Positions 14,343-25,672 of a stretch of DNA of 64,000 bases are shown in pieces. Source of the stretch: Escherichia coli. Lineage in GTDB: Bacteria > Pseudomonadota > Gammaproteobacteria > Enterobacterales > Enterobacteriaceae. The notes beneath the pieces are model-generated. The model did no database searches. It was given only the letters and a program-made list of their open reading frames with translations, and was not told the origin of the DNA. Position 1 is the first letter of the stretch. Every line of letters starts with the position of its first letter. The stretch lies in NCBI RefSeq assembly GCF_041886205.1, contig NZ_CP169029.1; one strand, given 5' to 3'. The translations under genes were made by a program, and so were the position numbers.

Positions 14343-16043
14343 TTACATTAACTGACTTTCCTCACCCTCCGCAGAGCGAAAGCTAATACTCACTAACGTG
14401 CCGCCGCCGGAAGGTTGTGAAAAAGTCAGCGTCCCACCTAGCCGTTCCGCGCGTTCGCGCATGATATTCAGACCATAATGACCTTCGGGTTCTTTCGGTT
14501 CACCGATACCAATCCCGTTATCACGGATATAAACCGTGTGATTGCCGTCCGGCGCGGTGACGCAACTGACGGCGATTTCGCTGGCGTTGGCGTGCTTCAT
14601 CGCATTCAGCACCGCTTCGCGAATAATTTGCAACAAATGCACCTGCATTTGCGCATCCAGTGCCAGGGTTGGCAGACGGCAGTCGAGGGTCAGTTTGGCG
14701 CTGGTTTGATTTTGTAACGTATCCAGCATTTCCCTCAATGCGGAGGGGAGATCCGCCTGCTGCAGCGTCAGGCGGAAAGTAGTCAACAGCTCGCGTAACT
14801 GCCGATAAGCATCATTCAACGCTTGGGAAAAATCGGCCATGATACTTTGTGCGGTGGCGTTATCTTCCGGTATCGAACGCTTCAGTAACGTCAACTGGAT
14901 ACGTAAGTAAGAAAGTACCTGAGCCAGCGAGTCGTGCAATTCGCGGGCGATGGTCGCACGTTCTTCCATCAACAATAATTGCTGAAAATGCTTCTGCGCC
15001 TGATTAAAGTACAAACCGCGTCCCAGCATCGACGAAACGCTGTTAAGCAGCGGTTCTGATGATGAAACGTGACTATTTTGCCAGTGCAGTTCGCCGTAAA
15101 CCGTCTCTTGCATTGTCACCGGTAAAATCTGCATCGGCAATTCCGGGTTTGGTTGCCCTTCGCTAATCCGCCAGTTTTCACCGACATTTAACTCCAGATA
15201 TTCAGCCGCTTCATTGTCGCGAACAATCTGCAAAATATGGCGGAAACAATGCACATCAATCTGGCTAGTGTTCAGCGCCTGCGAACACTGATACAACACC
15301 TCCAGACGACGCTTGGCCTCGTGGAGATCGCGGGTCTTTTCTTCTACTGACGCTTCCAGCGAACGGTACAATTTATGCAGCTCGCTCGACATCTGGTTAA
15401 AGGTTTTTGCAAGCAGACCAAGCTCATTCGGCAGGTTGGTATCCAGCGGCGGCGAGTCGAACTGCCCGTGTTCAATACGCTGACTGGCGGTAACCAGCTG
15501 ATTCAGCGGGGCAACCACCTGATGGCGTATGCGGCGCAAAGTAAAAAAGACCAGCGTGAAAATACCGATGCCGCCAGCCAGGGAAATCGCCACCACCAGC
15601 AGCATTTTGCGTTCAGCGTAGTGCTGTAAAGCCAGTACGAACAGGTCTATCTGATTAACATAATTATTAATATTGGCCTGATACCACGGCAAATCGCCCT
15701 TGCTGAGCCGATTATTCATCTCCAGCCAGTTGGCATTCAGATGCGCATAGCGAGTTTTTACTGCTTCTGGCACATACCAGACGTTGAGGTTGGTTAATAC
15801 CGGTGAATGCAGTGCCTGCTGAAATAACTGGCGATGTGCATTGAGTTGTGGACTGCCACTTTGCAAGTCGTAGCCCAGGCGGTAACTCTGCATACGCAGC
15901 GATCCGGCAATATTGATAGCCTCAGCGTCGCGCAAACTGCTCGCCAGAGTTAGCAGAGCGATACCCGTGGAAAGAATCGACAGCAGCACAATGTAAAAAA
16001 AGGCCCGGGCCAGACTGGCCGAGACGGGTCGTTTAACAATCAC
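14343..16043 (-). CDS. narQ: Nitrate/nitrite sensor histidine kinase NarQ
   Basis: 566 aa from the GTG at 16041-16043 (MIVKRPVSAS...); HAMP and H-box (ELHDSLAQ) plus ATPase domain; ORF track begins 5 codons upstream at another GTG. Confidence 0.9.
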   Translation of the reverse strand: MIVKRPVSASLARAFFYIVLLSILSTGIALLTLASSLRDAEAINIAGSLRMQSYRLGYDLQSGSPQLNAHRQLFQQALHSPVLTNLNVWYVPEAVKTRYAHLNANWLEMNNRLSKGDLPWYQANINNYVNQIDLFVLALQHYAERKMLLVVAISLAGGIGIFTLVFFTLRRIRHQVVAPLNQLVTASQRIEHGQFDSPPLDTNLPNELGLLAKTFNQMSSELHKLYRSLEASVEEKTRDLHEAKRRLEVLYQCSQALNTSQIDVHCFRHILQIVRDNEAAEYLELNVGENWRISEGQPNPELPMQILPVTMQETVYGELHWQNSHVSSSEPLLNSVSSMLGRGLYFNQAQKHFQQLLLMEERATIARELHDSLAQVLSYLRIQLTLLKRSIPEDNATAQSIMADFSQALNDAYRQLRELLTTFRLTLQQADLPSALREMLDTLQNQTSAKLTLDCRLPTLALDAQMQVHLLQIIREAVLNAMKHANASEIAVSCVTAPDGNHTVYIRDNGIGIGEPKEPEGHYGLNIMRERAERLGGTLTFSQPSGGGTLVSISFRSAEGEESQLM

Positions 16044-16248
16044 ACGCGTCTTCTCCACAAAAAATCATTAATGTTCCAGTTCGCTGAAACGCAATTTAGT
16101 CAGTGATGGGATTATTTGATCTGCCACAGTTTATAGCGAAATAGTTACTTATTCTGGGCACATGAACATTGCCGATTCCCCTGTAAGTCGGGTAATAACA
16201 ACACTCATATAAAGAATAAGGTTTTTACAACCAAAAAAGAAGGTCGTT

Positions 16249-18228
16249 ATGAATCGTTTTATTATGGCCAACAGTCAGCAATGTCTGGGTTGTCATGCTT
16301 GTGAAATCGCCTGTGTCATGGCTCACAATGATGAGCAACATGTCCTGAGCCAACACCATTTTCATCCCCGAATTACGGTTATCAAACATCAACAGCAACG
16401 TAGTGCAGTGACCTGTCACCATTGTGAAGATGCGCCCTGCGCCCGTAGCTGCCCTAATGGCGCAATCAGCCACGTTGATGACAGCATTCAGGTCAATCAG
16501 CAAAAGTGTATTGGCTGTAAATCCTGCGTGGTGGCCTGTCCTTTTGGTACGATGCAAATCGTCCTGACACCCGTCGCGGCAGGAAAAGTAAAAGCCACGG
16601 CGCATAAATGCGACCTTTGTGCGGGGCGCGAAAACGGTCCTGCCTGTGTTGAGAATTGCCCGGCGGACGCGCTGCAACTGGTCACTGACGTCGCACTCTC
16701 CGGCATGGCGAAATCCCGCCGCTTGCGCACCGCGCGTCAGGAACATCAACCGTGGCATGCCAGTACCGCGGCGCAAGAAATGCCGGTAATGAGTAAAGTC
16801 GAACAAATGCAGGCAACGCCCGCGCGTGGCGAGCCGGATAAACTGGCGATTGAAGCGCGCAAAACCGGTTTTGATGAAATTTATCTGCCATTTCGCGCCG
16901 ACCAGGCACAACGGGAAGCCTCGCGCTGCCTTAAGTGCGGCGAGCACAGCGTTTGTGAATGGACCTGCCCGCTGCATAACCATATACCGCAGTGGATTGA
17001 ACTGGTGAAAGCCGGAAACATCGACGCCGCCGTCGAGCTTTCTCACCAGACCAACACCCTGCCGGAAATTACCGGACGCGTTTGTCCGCAAGACCGTTTG
17101 TGTGAAGGTGCCTGTACTATTCGCGATGAGCACGGCGCGGTAACTATCGGCAACATTGAACGCTACATTTCAGATCAGGCGTTGGCGAAAGGTTGGCGTC
17201 CTGACTTAAGCCATGTCACCAAAGTGGACAAGCGGGTGGCGATTATCGGTGCAGGTCCGGCAGGGCTGGCCTGTGCGGATGTTCTGACCCGCAATGGCGT
17301 GGGGGTGACGGTGTACGATCGCCATCCAGAAATCGGTGGCTTGCTCACTTTCGGCATTCCTTCTTTCAAACTGGATAAATCCCTGCTGGCACGCCGTCGG
17401 GAAATCTTCAGCGCGATGGGGATTCACTTCGAACTCAATTGTGAAGTGGGTAAAGATGTCTCTTTGGATTCGCTTTTGGAACAATACGACGCGGTCTTCG
17501 TTGGCGTAGGCACTTACCGTTCCATGAAAGCGGGTTTACCCAATGAAGATGCGCCGGGCGTTTATGACGCGCTGCCGTTCCTCATTGCCAACACTAAACA
17601 GGTGATGGGGCTCGAAGAGCTACCGGAAGAGCCGTTTATCAATACCGCCGGACTTAACGTCGTGGTACTGGGCGGCGGCGACACCGCGATGGACTGTGTG
17701 CGTACCGCACTGCGCCACGGCGCGAGTAACGTCACCTGCGCTTATCGTCGTGATGAAGCTAACATGCCAGGCTCGAAGAAAGAAGTGAAGAACGCCCGCG
17801 AAGAGGGGGCCAACTTCGAATTTAACGTCCAGCCGGTGGCGCTTGAGCTGAATGAACAAGGTCACGTCTGCGGGATTCGTTTCCTGCGCACGCGTCTTGG
17901 CGAGCCGGATGCCCAGGGGCGTCGGCGTCCAGTGCCGGTGGAAGGCAGTGAATTTGTCATGCCAGCCGACGCGGTGATTATGGCGTTTGGCTTCAATCCG
18001 CACGGGATGCCGTGGCTGGAGTCGCACGGTGTAACGGTAGACAAATGGGGCCGCATCATCGCGGATGTGGAAAGCCAGTACCGTTACCAGACCACCAATC
18101 CGAAAATCTTCGCTGGTGGTGACGCCGTGCGTGGTGCGGATCTGGTGGTTACCGCAATGGCAGAAGGACGTCATGCGGCACAGGGGATTATTGACTGGCT
18201 GGGGGTAAAATCAGTCAAATCTCACTGA
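16249..18228 (+). CDS. aegA: Putative oxidoreductase AegA (ferredoxin-like N-terminus fused to glutamate-synthase-small-subunit-like flavoprotein)
   Basis: 659 aa; N-terminal Cys clusters (CLGCHACEIAC, CIGCKSCVVACP), C-terminal GAGPAG dinucleotide-binding motif; GAAGG RBS. Confidence 0.9.
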   Translation: MNRFIMANSQQCLGCHACEIACVMAHNDEQHVLSQHHFHPRITVIKHQQQRSAVTCHHCEDAPCARSCPNGAISHVDDSIQVNQQKCIGCKSCVVACPFGTMQIVLTPVAAGKVKATAHKCDLCAGRENGPACVENCPADALQLVTDVALSGMAKSRRLRTARQEHQPWHASTAAQEMPVMSKVEQMQATPARGEPDKLAIEARKTGFDEIYLPFRADQAQREASRCLKCGEHSVCEWTCPLHNHIPQWIELVKAGNIDAAVELSHQTNTLPEITGRVCPQDRLCEGACTIRDEHGAVTIGNIERYISDQALAKGWRPDLSHVTKVDKRVAIIGAGPAGLACADVLTRNGVGVTVYDRHPEIGGLLTFGIPSFKLDKSLLARRREIFSAMGIHFELNCEVGKDVSLDSLLEQYDAVFVGVGTYRSMKAGLPNEDAPGVYDALPFLIANTKQVMGLEELPEEPFINTAGLNVVVLGGGDTAMDCVRTALRHGASNVTCAYRRDEANMPGSKKEVKNAREEGANFEFNVQPVALELNEQGHVCGIRFLRTRLGEPDAQGRRRPVPVEGSEFVMPADAVIMAFGFNPHGMPWLESHGVTVDKWGRIIADVESQYRYQTTNPKIFAGGDAVRGADLVVTAMAEGRHAAQGIIDWLGVKSVKSH

Positions 18229-18295
18229 TAGCCTGCGCAGACAAACCCGACTTCACAGCGTAAGATAATTGTTCATTTCGCGCTGTGGAGTCGGT

Positions 18296-18871
18296 ATGAC
18301 GCAACAAATCACCCTCATTAAAGACAAAATTCTCTCCGATAACTATTTCACCCTGCACAACATTACTTACGATCTCACGCGCAAAGATGGCGAAGTTATC
18401 CGCCATAAACGTGAAGTTTACGATCGCGGTAATGGTGCGACGATCCTCCTGTACAACGCGAAGAAAAAGACCGTGGTTCTGATTCGTCAGTTCCGTGTCG
18501 CTACCTGGGTTAATGGCAATGAAAGCGGGCAGCTGATTGAAACCTGCGCCGGGCTGCTGGATAACGACGAACCGGAAGTGTGCATTCGCAAAGAAGCGAT
18601 TGAAGAGACGGGCTATGAAGTGGGCGAAGTGCGCAAATTATTTGAACTGTATATGTCGCCAGGCGGTGTGACTGAGCTAATCCACTTTTTTATCGCCGAA
18701 TACAGTGACAATCAGCGCGCTAACGCCGGTGGCGGTGTCGAAGATGAAGATATTGAAGTGCTCGAGCTGCCGTTCAGCCAGGCGCTGGAGATGATCAAAA
18801 CCGGCGAGATACGTGACGGTAAGACGGTGTTATTGCTTAACTATTTGCAAACGTCACATTTAATGGACTGA
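18296..18871 (+). CDS. nudK: GDP-mannose pyrophosphatase NudK (Nudix hydrolase)
   Basis: 191 aa from [11 protein letters not shown]; Nudix box [22 protein letters not shown]. Confidence 0.9.
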
Positions 18872-22153: not shown

Positions 22154-23104
22154 TTATAGTTTGGCGGCAAGAAGATCTTCCAGTTTGCGTTGATCAACGG
22201 CGAACAGACGAATGCCTTCAGACAGTTTTTCTACCGCCATCGGATCCTGATTGTGCTCCCAACGGAACTCCGCTTCGCTCATGGGAGCTGGGCGTGGGAA
22301 CGTCTGAGAAGGTGGGATTAATTTACGTACCACTGGCGAAACTTTTTCCTGCAGCTCCTTCAGCAAATTCGGTGCGATAGTCAGTCGATCGCAGCCGGTT
22401 AAGGCGAGGATTTGTTCGGTGCGACGGAAGCTCGCGCCCATCACAATGGTTTCATAGTGGTGTTGCTTATAGTAGTCGTAGATATTGCGCACCGATTTAA
22501 CGCCCGGATCTTCTTCCACCACATACGGGTCCATCGGCTTGCGTGCCTGATACCAGTCATAAATACGCCCGACAAACGGCGAAATCAGAAAAACGCCTGC
22601 TTCCGCACAGGCCCGTGCCTGTGCAAAAGAAAACAGCAGCGTCAGGTTGCAGTTAATACCTTCTTTTTCCAGCTCTTCTGCCGCGCGAATTCCTTCCCAG
22701 GTCGAAGCCAGCTTGATCAGAATGCGTGATTTCTCAACGCCTTGTTGCTGATACAAGTCCACCAGATGGCGCGCCTTCTCAATACTCTTTTCTTTATCAA
22801 AAGAGAGGCGTGCATCAACTTCTGTTGACACGCGACCGGGTACGATTTTGAGGATTTCAGCACCGAAATTGACCGCCAGTTTGTCACACGCTGCGACCAC
22901 CTGTTGTTCCTGGGTCTTGCCATTTTTTTTACCCCAGGCGATAGCATCGTCTATTAAATGCTCATATTGTGATAATCCGGCAGCTTTGAGTAACAGCGAA
23001 GGATTGGTGGTGGCATCCTGGGGATGATAATGGCGAATGGACTCAATATCGCCGCTGTCTGCCACGACAGTGGTGAACTGTTTGATGCCGTCTAACTCGT
23101 TCAT
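22154..23104 (-). CDS. talA: Transaldolase A
   Basis: 316 aa; recognised TalA; 19 bp upstream of tktB (talA-tktB operon). Confidence 0.92.
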
Positions 23105-23392
23105 AGGAAATACTCCTTGAAAAGTAAAGTGTTAGATGAGTGCGTTAATTCACACTTCTGAGAAATTTCGCTAAACGCATCAAAAAAGCATAGCAGACAG
23201 GCATGGTATTGCTGGATTAAGCAGGTAACATCAGTGTTATAGGATTATTACCAAAACATTATATTAATGGTGAGAGTTTTGACTTGCTCAAAGTCTGTAG
23301 ACTCCGGCAGGGTAATAATGTGCGCCACGTTGTGGGCAGGGGCTGTTGCCCACACACTTTATTTGTGAACGTTACGTGAAAGGAACAACCAA

Positions 23393-25672
23393 ATGGATGA
23401 CCAGTTAAAACAAAGTGCACTTGATTTCCATGAATTTCCAGTTCCAGGGAAAATCCAGGTTTCTCCAACCAAGCCTCTGGCAACACAGCGCGATCTGGCG
23501 CTGGCCTACTCACCAGGCGTTGCCGCACCTTGTCTTGAAATCGAAAAAGACCCGTTAAAAGCCTACAAATATACCGCCCGCGGTAACCTGGTGGCGGTGA
23601 TCTCTAACGGTACGGCGGTGCTGGGGTTAGGCAACATTGGCGCGCTGGCAGGCAAACCGGTGATGGAAGGCAAGGGCGTTCTGTTTAAGAAATTCGCCGG
23701 GATTGATGTATTTGACATTGAAGTTGACGAACTCGACCCGGACAAATTTATTGAAGTTGTCGCCGCGCTCGAACCAACCTTCGGCGGCATCAACCTCGAA
23801 GACATTAAAGCGCCAGAATGTTTCTATATTGAACAGAAACTGCGCGAGCGGATGAATATTCCGGTATTCCACGACGATCAGCACGGCACGGCAATTATCA
23901 GCACTGCCGCCATCCTCAACGGCTTGCGCGTGGTGGAGAAAAACATCTCTGACGTGCGTATGGTGGTTTCCGGCGCGGGTGCCGCAGCAATCGCCTGTAT
24001 GAACCTGCTGGTAGCGCTGGGTCTGCAAAAACATAACATCGTGGTTTGCGATTCAAAAGGCGTTATCTATCAGGGCCGTGAGCCAAACATGGCGGAAACC
24101 AAAGCCGCATATGCGGTGGTGGATGACGGCAAACGTACCCTCGATGATGTGATTGAAGGCGCGGATATTTTCCTCGGATGTTCCGGCCCGAAAGTGCTGA
24201 CCCAGGAAATGGTGAAGAAAATGGCTCGTGCGCCAATGATCCTGGCGCTGGCGAACCCGGAACCGGAAATTCTGCCGCCGCTGGCGAAAGAAGTGCGTCC
24301 GGATGCCATCATTTGCACCGGTCGTTCTGACTATCCGAACCAGGTGAACAACGTCCTGTGCTTCCCGTTCATCTTCCGTGGCGCGCTGGACGTTGGCGCA
24401 ACCGCAATCAACGAAGAGATGAAACTGGCGGCGGTACGTGCGATTGCAGAACTCGCCCATGCGGAACAGAGCGAAGTGGTGGCTTCAGCGTATGGCGATC
24501 AGGATCTGAGCTTTGGTCCGGAATACATCATTCCAAAACCGTTTGATCCGCGCTTGATCGTTAAGATCGCTCCTGCGGTCGCTAAAGCCGCGATGGAGTC
24601 GGGCGTGGCGACGCGTCCGATTGCTGATTTCGACGTCTACATCGACAAGCTGACTGAGTTCGTTTACAAAACCAACCTGTTTATGAAGCCGATTTTCTCC
24701 CAGGCTCGCAAAGCGCCGAAGCGCGTAGTTCTGCCGGAAGGGGAAGAGGCGCGCGTTCTGCATGCCACTCAGGAACTGGTAACGCTGGGACTGGCGAAAC
24801 CGATCCTTATCGGTCGTCCGAACGTGATCGAAATGCGCATTCAGAAACTGGGCTTGCAGATCAAAGCGGGCGTTGATTTTGAGATCGTCAATAACGAATC
24901 CGATCCGCGCTTTAAAGAGTACTGGACCGAATACTTCCAGATCATGAAGCGTCGCGGCGTCACTCAGGAACAGGCGCAGCGGGCGCTGATCAGTAACCCG
25001 ACAGTGATCGGCGCGATCATGGTTCAGCGTGGCGAAGCCGATGCAATGATTTGCGGTACGGTGGGTGATTATCATGAACATTTTAGCGTGGTGAAAAATG
25101 TCTTTGGTTATCGTGATGGCGTTCACACCGCAGGTGCCATGAACGCGCTGCTGCTGCCGAGTGGTAACACCTTTATTGCCGATACATATGTTAATGATGA
25201 ACCGGATGCAGAAGAGCTGGCGGAGATCACCTTGATGGCGGCAGAAACTGTCCGTCGTTTTGGTATTGAGCCGCGCGTTGCTCTGTTGTCGCACTCCAAC
25301 TTTGGTTCTTCTGACTGCCCGTCGTCGAGCAAAATGCGTCAGGCGCTGGAACTGGTCAGGGATCGTGCGCCAGATCTGATGATTGATGGTGAAATGCACG
25401 GCGATGCAGCGCTGGTGGAAGCGATTCGCAACGACCGTATGCCGGACAGCCCTTTGAAAGGTTCTGCCAATATTCTGGTGATGCCGAACATGGAAGCTGC
25501 CCGCATTAGTTACAACTTACTGCGCGTTTCCAGCTCGGAAGGTGTGACTGTCGGTCCGGTGCTGATGGGCGTGGCGAAACCGGTTCACGTGTTAACGCCG
25601 ATCGCATCGGTGCGTCGTATCGTCAACATGGTGGCGCTGGCCGTGGTTGAAGCGCAAACCCAACCGCTGTAA
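23393..25672 (+). CDS. maeB: NADP-dependent malic enzyme
   Basis: 759 aa; N-terminal malic enzyme domain plus C-terminal phosphotransacetylase-like domain; recognised MaeB. Confidence 0.93.

Follow-up and report, generated by a model that had tools for sequence, protein, structure and literature searches.

NfnB/NfnI and the N-terminal half of DPD carry two [4Fe-4S] sites together with FAD and NADPH domains. In Escherichia coli, aegA was reportedly described by Cavicchioli in 1996 as a two-domain fusion located beside narQ, and its control by fnr, narX, narQ and narL is said to have been reported there as well. Publication of the AegA fusion dates from 1996, and that of its connection to formate-dependent uric acid use from 2019. 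Iwadate & Kato (2019) are reported to have tied aegA genetically to the formate- and FDH-H-dependent degradation of uric acid, and ygfT as well. A published proposal has AegA and YgfT take electrons from formate dehydrogenase and hand them to NADP+ or uric acid. Two-hybrid assays indicate that AegA interacts with HycB, HydN and YsaA, and that contact between AegA and FdhF is absent or only weak. Deletion of aegA leaves the dye-linked activity of FDH-H, hydrogenase activity and H2 production unchanged. In rich medium uric acid raises aegA expression only to a modest degree, and a published study concluded that the gene, unlike ygfT and ygfK, plays no part under that condition. In vitro, XdhD-YgfM can use NADH to reduce uric acid, indicating that what the core pathway requires is reduced pyridine nucleotide and not AegA as such. 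The earlier note on this DNA had called the physiological substrate of AegA poorly defined. That description holds for the direct electron donor and acceptor, but a formate-dependent role in uric acid use has reportedly been tied to the gene genetically since 2019.

The window, a stretch of 64,000 nucleotides of E. coli DNA, contains on its plus strand an open reading frame at 16249-18228, with an ATG start and 659 codons plus stop. This frame is aegA, a core gene of E. coli: at the DNA level it matches the annotated gene (WP_001078880.1) of several RefSeq E. coli genomes with 100% identity, and the protein scores 1397 bits against the NCBIfam AegA equivalog NF009408 (curated cut-off 1003), with residues 1-659 matching model positions 1-659. 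NCBI names this family "formate-dependent uric acid utilization protein AegA"; the E. coli protein is b2468. The gene is flanked by the divergent narQ and, downstream, by nudK, the same orthologous position as in E. coli genomes, and it is present with the same neighbours in 5425 of 5426 complete genomes of the species. In the open reading frame list and the annotation, narQ occupies 14343-16043 on the minus strand. Because its annotated start is a GTG at 16043, the gap between the two genes is exactly 16044-16248, or 205 bp. The name of the gene, its divergence from narQ and the limits of the gap had all been given in the earlier note and proved correct. A Shine-Dalgarno sequence, AAGAAGG, can be read at 16237-16243 on the plus strand, 5 nt before the ATG, and the start codon is confirmed by homology to HycB from Met1 (MNRF...) onward.

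The N-terminal module (residues 1 to ~165; 16249-16743, plus strand) is a ferredoxin of the HycB/HydN type, as defined by its cysteine map, phmmer and the HydN model. The first 137 residues contain 16 cysteines in four groups: C12-x2-C-x2-C-x3-C(V), which lacks the proline, C56-x2-C-x4-C-x3-CP, C87-x2-C-x2-C-x3-CP and C121-x2-C-x8-C-x3-CP. An earlier description of several CxxCxxCxxxCP motifs is thus loosely right about the four groups, but only one of them fits that pattern strictly; one is without the proline and two have a longer spacer to the third cysteine. Pfam places Fer4 families over residues 52-145. With phmmer, AegA matches E. coli HycB (7z0s_B) with an E-value of 1.5e-35, residues 1-161 being aligned from Met1, and HycB3/HycB4 of HDCR (7qv7_A, 7qv7_B) with 1e-30. 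In the alignments with these three chains all four groups and all 16 cysteines are in register, suggesting that the module would bind four [4Fe-4S] clusters. The HydN model NF007658 covers residues 1-163 at 175 bits, below its equivalog cut-off of 260; the module is a paralogue of HydN, not HydN itself. In the AF2 model, for which eight sequences cover this region, the module has a pLDDT of 35-68. Because this confidence is too low, we draw no conclusion about the geometry between the modules. The linker that follows (residues ~166-192; 16744-16824, plus strand) has no Pfam match, falls below a pLDDT of 50 over residues 164-179, and is the most gapped stretch of the alignment of AegA with YgfT.

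The C-terminal module (residues 193-653; 16825-18207, plus strand) is a GltD-like flavoprotein. It is 67% identical to residues 13-472 of E. coli GltD with a single one-residue gap, and AegA scores 877.9 bits against the NCBIfam model TIGR01318. In a PDB sequence search the matches over residues 192-654 include GltD, NfnI and DPD, with an E-value of 4.7e-120 to GltD (6s6s_G). Its N-terminal helical domain is of the Fer4_20 type (residues 205-315; 16861-17193, plus strand; PF14691, E 9e-38) and contains seven cysteines in the patterns C-x2-C-x5-C-x3-CP and C-x5-C-x3-C. These residues (C227, C230, C236, C240, P241, C279, C285 and C289) are invariant among 47 aligned sequences, and by analogy with GltD, DPD and NfnB the domain would hold two [4Fe-4S] clusters. 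Pyr_redox_2 follows over residues 329-640 (Pfam, E 9e-24). At the start of this match the motif map places GAGPAG (residues 334-339; 17248-17265, plus strand), the dinucleotide fold that had been noticed in the C-terminal part; it is nearly invariant across the 47-sequence alignment and, by homology to GltD, is the probable FAD site. A second dinucleotide fold is marked by GGGDTA (residues 475-480; 17671-17688, plus strand), followed by YRRD (residues 499-502). Both motifs are invariant or nearly so in the alignment and occur unchanged in E. coli GltD, suggesting that they form the NAD(P)H site.

AF2 assigns a pLDDT above 90 to most of residues 190-659, and the modelled C-terminal module has the GltD/NfnB fold: Foldseek gives TM-scores of 0.89 to GltD (6s6s_E) and 0.87 to the NfnI large subunit (5jca_L), the latter being the best structural match with an E-value of 1.5e-48. 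This match, the sequence matches of AegA to NfnI, NfnB, NfnABC and StnABC, and a review that raises the possibility explicitly are the grounds for considering flavin bifurcation or confurcation by analogy with NfnAB, in which an NfnB-like FAD would split or merge electron pairs among NAD(P)H, the ferredoxin-like chain and a third partner. We consider this quite improbable, as AegA is far more similar to the non-bifurcating GltD (67% identity, compared with ~36%) and no gene for an NfnA-like partner with a second flavin lies next to aegA.

By its alignments, then, AegA is two complete proteins placed end to end, a HycB/HydN-type ferredoxin and a GltD paralogue joined by a short linker. The Pfam and NCBIfam scores are far past chance level and, together with the HycB and GltD alignments, bear out the earlier reading of the protein as a ferredoxin fused to a glutamate-synthase-small-subunit-like flavoprotein; the domain search proposed as its check returned both modules (Fer4, Fer4_20 and Pyr_redox_2). 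Structure prediction, proposed alongside it, agrees for the C-terminal fold (TM 0.87-0.89), but its confidence for the ferredoxin module is low. The multi-cluster description did not set apart the two additional clusters of GltD type. Because the GltD-like part has a two-cluster cysteine domain of its own, six [4Fe-4S] clusters are predicted for AegA rather than four, and the protein should hold all six. A pattern scan of genome contigs returned at least 120 loci. Of those listed, 111 have the GltD-like module but no ferredoxin domain N-terminal to it, and presumably are ordinary gltD.

The paralogue YgfT is 55% identical to AegA over its full length. In a neighbor-joining (NJ) tree all 200 of 200 bootstraps unite the C-terminal modules of the two in a single clade, which rules out separate fusions; on this tree, AegA and YgfT descend from a single ancestral fusion. 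Separate fusions had been considered since the C-terminal module of AegA shares more identity with GltD (67%) than with the corresponding module of YgfT (60%), but this reflects the longer branch of YgfT. What the present analysis adds is small: that two complete proteins were joined, that one fusion event accounts for both AegA and YgfT, and that an FNR-like site is placed for aegA.

This site lies in the divergent intergenic region between narQ and aegA (16044-16248; 205 bp, 38% G+C), where consensus scans by themselves gave no significant match. The site, TTGATCTGCCACAG (16116-16129), agrees with TTGAT-N4-ATCAA at 7 of 10 consensus positions, with three mismatches. It is the sole match to the FNR consensus in the gap, at chance level by count on its own, and a published FNR ChIP-chip study (PMC1802558) predicts this site beneath its peak 'aegA/narQ'. 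Conservation of the gap was judged from five aegA upstream regions of five species, among the matches listed. In these regions TTGATCTGC-ACA is invariant, and the centre of the FNR-like site is 124.5-126.5 nt from the aegA ATG in five of five species; its distances to narQ are 72, 21 and 53 nt. This spacing suggests that the site is placed for aegA rather than narQ. The earlier note had named the gap as the place to look for FNR and NarL/NarP sites. One FNR-like site was found, with support from ChIP and conservation, although the scan by itself is at chance level; no convincing NarL/NarP site is present in the gap. No 7-2-7 heptamer pair was found in 16044-16248 at three or fewer mismatches. 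One exact match to the NarL/NarP heptamer TACYYMT, TACTTAT, is present at 16146-16152, but 109 of 500 shuffles do as well and it is not conserved in the five-species alignment. With no 7-2-7 pair and a lone heptamer that is neither significant nor conserved, we rejected NarL/NarP control as a conclusion from sequence.

A candidate -35 hexamer, TTGCCG (16169-16174, plus strand), falls within the invariant ACATTGC block, its offset being identical in all five species. After an 18-nt spacer, a candidate -10 hexamer, TAATAA (16193-16198, plus strand), lies in an invariant GGTAA..AC block and reads TAAATA in relatives. A simple sigma-70 scan of the gap did not call these two hexamers. With these hexamers transcription would begin around 16205, which would put the FNR-like site at about -82.5. 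A sigma-70 promoter some 45 nt before the ATG, with a distal FNR site at that position, probably drives aegA. Reg-Seq found no regulatory sites for aegA under its conditions. Two upstream blocks, AAATAG at 16139-16144 and GCA..TG.ACATTGC at 16158-16172, are invariant as well and could serve a regulator not yet described. We rejected a sigma-54 promoter within the conserved stretch CTGGGCAC...TTGCC: the spacing from GG to GC is 12-13 nt, not 10, and the relative L119, the orthologue in an Enterobacter MAG, is without the GG. Within narQ, published ChIP-seq data place a sigma-54 site directed towards aegA (15363-15379 of the window); it is probably noise, as both of its key dinucleotides are lost in L119. 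No Rfam match was found in 15800-18500.

Taken as a whole, these observations are best explained if AegA is a soluble electron-transfer flavoprotein expressed from a sigma-70/FNR-site promoter, which we regard as likely. We infer its cofactor content, its partners and the direction of its electrons as follows. Electrons would pass singly along a wire of six clusters between the FDH-H-associated ferredoxin-like network (HycB, HydN and YsaA) and the FAD, and the FAD would exchange hydride with NAD(P)+/NAD(P)H. We lean, with real hesitation, towards flow from formate through FDH-H, the ferredoxin module, the GltD clusters and the FAD to NAD(P)+. Reduced pyridine nucleotide made by AegA would then feed the uric acid enzymes XdhD-YgfM and YgfK, and we propose that uric acid use needs formate because formate-driven reduction of NAD(P)+ would supply them.

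Flow in the opposite direction, from NAD(P)H to the FAD and then singly through the six clusters to a separate catalytic partner (for example a molybdoenzyme or a reductase acting in uric acid breakdown), would be the mode of glutamate synthase and dihydropyrimidine dehydrogenase. It would suit the C-terminal module, which keeps the NADPH-type YRRD motif and shares 67% identity with GltD, a protein that passes electrons from NADPH through FAD and clusters to a partner subunit. It is unlikely, however: it leaves the formate and FDH-H requirement of the pathway unexplained, XdhD-YgfM already includes an FAD subunit and takes its electrons straight from NADH, and the N-terminal module looks like the proteins that accept electrons from formate dehydrogenases. 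That the AegA flavin would itself reduce uric acid or another purine intermediate was reportedly left open by Iwadate & Kato, and YgfK, also a Fer4_20 and Pyr_redox_2 protein, is a substrate-reducing enzyme of the pathway. Nevertheless, YgfK and DPD carry out reduction at an extra FMN/DHODH-like domain that AegA is without, and XdhD and YgfK already account for the reduction of uric acid and isoxanthine, making direct reduction very improbable indeed.

AegA and YgfT might be the missing exit module that makes FDH-H a soluble formate:NAD(P)+ oxidoreductase, possibly a bifurcating one; we find this possible but doubtful. Electrons from formate would then have a second way out in E. coli, one independent of hydrogen and feeding anaerobic purine breakdown. 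The idea of an exit module has already been floated in the literature, and its truth would confirm a published hypothesis. The donor, acceptor and direction of AegA, which sequence cannot settle, bear on the anaerobic disposal of urate by gut bacteria.

Each part of AegA can be compared with a described system. HycB, HydN and YsaA (7z0s_B; NF007658) are free-standing ferredoxins, whereas the ferredoxin of AegA is fused to a flavoprotein. The large subunit of NfnB/NfnI and the N-terminal half of DPD (5jca_L, 4ylf_B, 1h7x_A) have the GltD-like fold in common with AegA, but they are only 27-37% identical to it, and the Nfn partner NfnA and the FMN domain of DPD are absent from AegA. With GltD (TIGR01318; 6s6s_G, 2vdc_G), AegA shares the seven cysteines, the FAD fold and the NADPH fold; unlike GltD, it carries a four-cluster ferredoxin in addition at its N-terminus, and in the NJ tree the GltD group excludes both AegA and YgfT. 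No gltB lies beside aegA at this locus, and E. coli has a separate gltBD operon. Lacking an adjacent gltB and placed outside the GltD group, AegA was rejected as a glutamate synthase. The paralogue YgfT/UacF (NF009451) has the same three-part architecture, all the cysteine groups and both nucleotide folds, and is likewise implicated in the formate-dependent uric acid phenotype. AegA scores 872.7 against the YgfT model, below its cut-off of 1154. The two genes also differ in setting and response: ygfT lies in a purine/urate island, beside uacT, which encodes a urate permease, and with the HydN-like gene ygfS after it, whereas aegA is isolated between narQ and nudK, and uric acid induces ygfT strongly but aegA only modestly.

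AegA, the 659-residue product of an ORF at 16249..18228 (+ strand, ATG start), is an entire HycB/HydN-type ferredoxin joined by a linker of about 25 residues to an entire GltD, as domain matches, the cysteine map, identity to GltD and a model of the C-terminal module together establish. Pfam places Fer4-type domains at residues 52–145, Fer4_20 at 205–315 (E = 9e-38) and Pyr_redox_2 at 329–640 (E = 9e-24). The NCBIfam AegA equivalog NF009408 covers the protein over its full length (1397 bits against a cut-off of 1003), residues 187–653 match TIGR01318, the model of the gltD family, and the HydN model matches residues 1–163 with a score below its cut-off. Among solved structures, residues 1–161 align with E. 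coli HycB (E = 1.5e-35) and with the HycB3/HycB4 subunits of HDCR, with all cysteine groups in register, and residues 192–651 match A. brasilense GltD (E = 4.7e-120), followed by NfnI, NfnB and DPD. E. coli GltD (residues 13–472) is 67% identical to AegA residues 193–653 with a single one-residue gap, a match that takes in the YRRD...MPGS stretch following the second nucleotide fold (GGGDTA, residues 475–480). AlphaFold2, run on an alignment of 47 sequences, modelled the C-terminal module confidently (pLDDT mostly >90), and the model superposes on NfnI and GltD with TM scores of 0.87–0.89; confidence was low for the ferredoxin module (pLDDT 35–68).

The earlier note, made from the sequence alone, had described this fusion and placed a GAGPAG dinucleotide fold in its C-terminal part, where we find it at residues 334–339. 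It also described several N-terminal CxxCxxCxxxCP motifs. Residues 12–137 do hold 16 cysteines in four groups, of which only C87–C97 fits the strict motif. Seven more cysteines lie in the Fer4_20 domain (227, 230, 236, 240; 279, 285, 289); these are invariant in the 47-sequence alignment, and the motifs are invariant or nearly so. As a refinement, two further clusters are predicted in the GltD part; by homology, AegA is expected to hold six [4Fe-4S] clusters in all, together with one FAD and a site for NAD(P)H. The earlier observation is thus confirmed and its interpretation supported; the feature was already known, since everything essential is in databases and papers.

Over 2.5 kb around aegA, the DNA shows 100% identity with several RefSeq E. 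coli chromosomes. Of 5426 complete E. coli genomes, 5425 contain the region, annotated there as aegA with narQ and nudK on either side; one genome has no match, and one of the matches comes from a record classed as a plasmid. The ATG start is confirmed because homology begins at Met1, and a Shine-Dalgarno sequence (AAGAAGG) stands 5 nt 5' of it. As claimed, aegA is divergent from the nitrate sensor gene narQ (14343..16043, − strand, starting at the annotated GTG) across a 205-bp gap (16044–16248). In its longest form the narQ ORF begins with a GTG at 16058 and encodes 571 residues; the RefSeq start, the GTG at 16043, gives 566. In each of the five species with a readable downstream side (loci L030, L045, L051 and L118 of relatives' genomes included), nudK comes next after aegA in the same orientation. 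No terminator-like hairpin was seen on the + strand of the 67-bp aegA–nudK gap in E. coli (18229–18295), and co-transcription is possible. Divergent narQ is present in three of the four species with a readable upstream gene. In Enterobacter sp. Bisph1 (L019:1262-4875) narQ is absent and a 1037-residue, acrD-sized ORF faces aegA across about 500 bp, yet every conserved upstream block of aegA is retained.

A consensus scan of the gap, which the earlier note had proposed inspecting for FNR and NarL/NarP sites, found one FNR-like match, TTGATCTGCCACAG at 16116–16129, with three mismatches. Such matches occur about once per 200 bp in the window, and by themselves the consensus scans do not support regulation. 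Two independent lines lift the site above noise: FNR ChIP-chip gave an 'aegA/narQ' peak whose predicted underlying site is exactly 16116–16129 (Grainger et al., PMC1802558), and, when the sequences upstream of aegA in five species are aligned, TTGATCTGC-ACA remains invariant amid diverging flanks. In each of the five species the centre of the site is 124.5–126.5 nt away from the aegA ATG, whereas its distance to the narQ start is 72, 21 or 53 nt, and the site persists where narQ is missing. We therefore assign the candidate FNR site to aegA.

Three further blocks are invariant in the five species: AAATAG (16139–16144), GCA..TG.ACATTGC (16158–16172) and GGTAA..AC (16191–16199). The first two lie between the FNR-like site and a candidate −10, and part of them may be the −35 hexamer. 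TTGCCG (16169–16174) and TAATAA (16193–16198), separated by 18 nt, are likely the −35 and −10 of aegA; with this pair, transcription would be predicted to begin near 16205, and the FNR-like site would sit at about −82.5, in a class I position. Neither hexamer was called by a simple promoter scan, and Reg-Seq detected no sites in the aegA promoter under the conditions it used. Within the gap (16044–16248) there is no NarL/NarP 7-2-7 match with up to three mismatches, and its one exact heptamer, TACTTAT (16146–16152), is not above shuffles. Reading the GGGCAC...TTGCC block as a sigma-54 promoter fails because of its spacing and because one relative does not fit. The published sigma-54 ChIP-seq site IA19, ACGGTACAATTTATGCA (15363–15379, + strand), lies within narQ, antisense to it and directed at aegA 859 bp away. 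In an Enterobacter MAG orthologue (L119) neither the GG nor the GC is retained, so IA19 probably reflects non-functional binding. Elsewhere in the window, TACTCCTTGAAAAGTA (23111–23126) differs at one position from the NarL/NarP 7-2-7 consensus, a quality of match expected 0.10 times per window; it lies 7 bp upstream of a talA-sized 316-residue ORF (22154..23104, − strand) and in the gap before a 759-residue ORF (23393..25672, + strand). Nitrate control is not known to have been reported here.

The two-domain fusion is credited by later papers to Cavicchioli et al. (1996), and Vanoni's review includes AegA in the family of GltD-like modules. As cited in later papers, Iwadate and Kato (2019) showed that E. 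coli degrades uric acid anaerobically only with formate, in a process that involves aegA and ygfT as well as formate dehydrogenase H (FDH-H, FdhF); they proposed that AegA and YgfT pass electrons from the dehydrogenase to NADP+ or uric acid. The earlier note called the physiological substrate of AegA poorly defined; as a further refinement, a genetic role has been known since 2019. In a published two-hybrid assay AegA interacts with HycB, HydN and YsaA and makes no clear contact with FdhF; deletion of aegA leaves FDH-H and hydrogenase activities unaffected. Liu et al. found that uric acid induces aegA only modestly, and ygfT and ygfK strongly. According to a 2025 preprint, XdhD-YgfM turns uric acid into isoxanthine (using NADH in vitro), YgfK and downstream hydrolases carry out further chemical steps, and no catalytic step falls to AegA. 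Putting these genetic, interaction, enzyme and induction results together, we tentatively favour, as the most economical model, an electron-input or redox-balancing module that carries formate electrons to NAD(P)H. Electrons would enter through the FDH-H/ferredoxin network, pass along the six-cluster wire to FAD and end up in NAD(P)H, which the reductive purine enzymes would use. Operation of AegA in reverse, in the GltD-like direction, is unlikely, Nfn-like bifurcation is a still more doubtful reading, and direct substrate reduction by AegA seems highly improbable.

A degenerate-pattern scan with one genome per species listed at least 120 loci. Among the matches listed, 9 of 120 carry the N-terminal ferredoxin domain (six aegA and three ygfT orthologues), all in named Enterobacterales genera or enterobacterial-like MAGs; the other 111 have the GltD-like module alone and are presumably ordinary gltD. 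The C-terminal module of AegA is closer in identity to GltD (67%) than to that of YgfT (60%). Despite this, the modules of AegA and YgfT form a single clade, separate from GltD, in a neighbour-joining tree (200 of 200 bootstraps), which indicates a single fusion followed by duplication, with YgfT the faster evolving. YgfT, the E. coli paralogue, is 55% identical to AegA over its full length; ygfT adjoins uacT, and the HydN-like ygfS follows ygfT.
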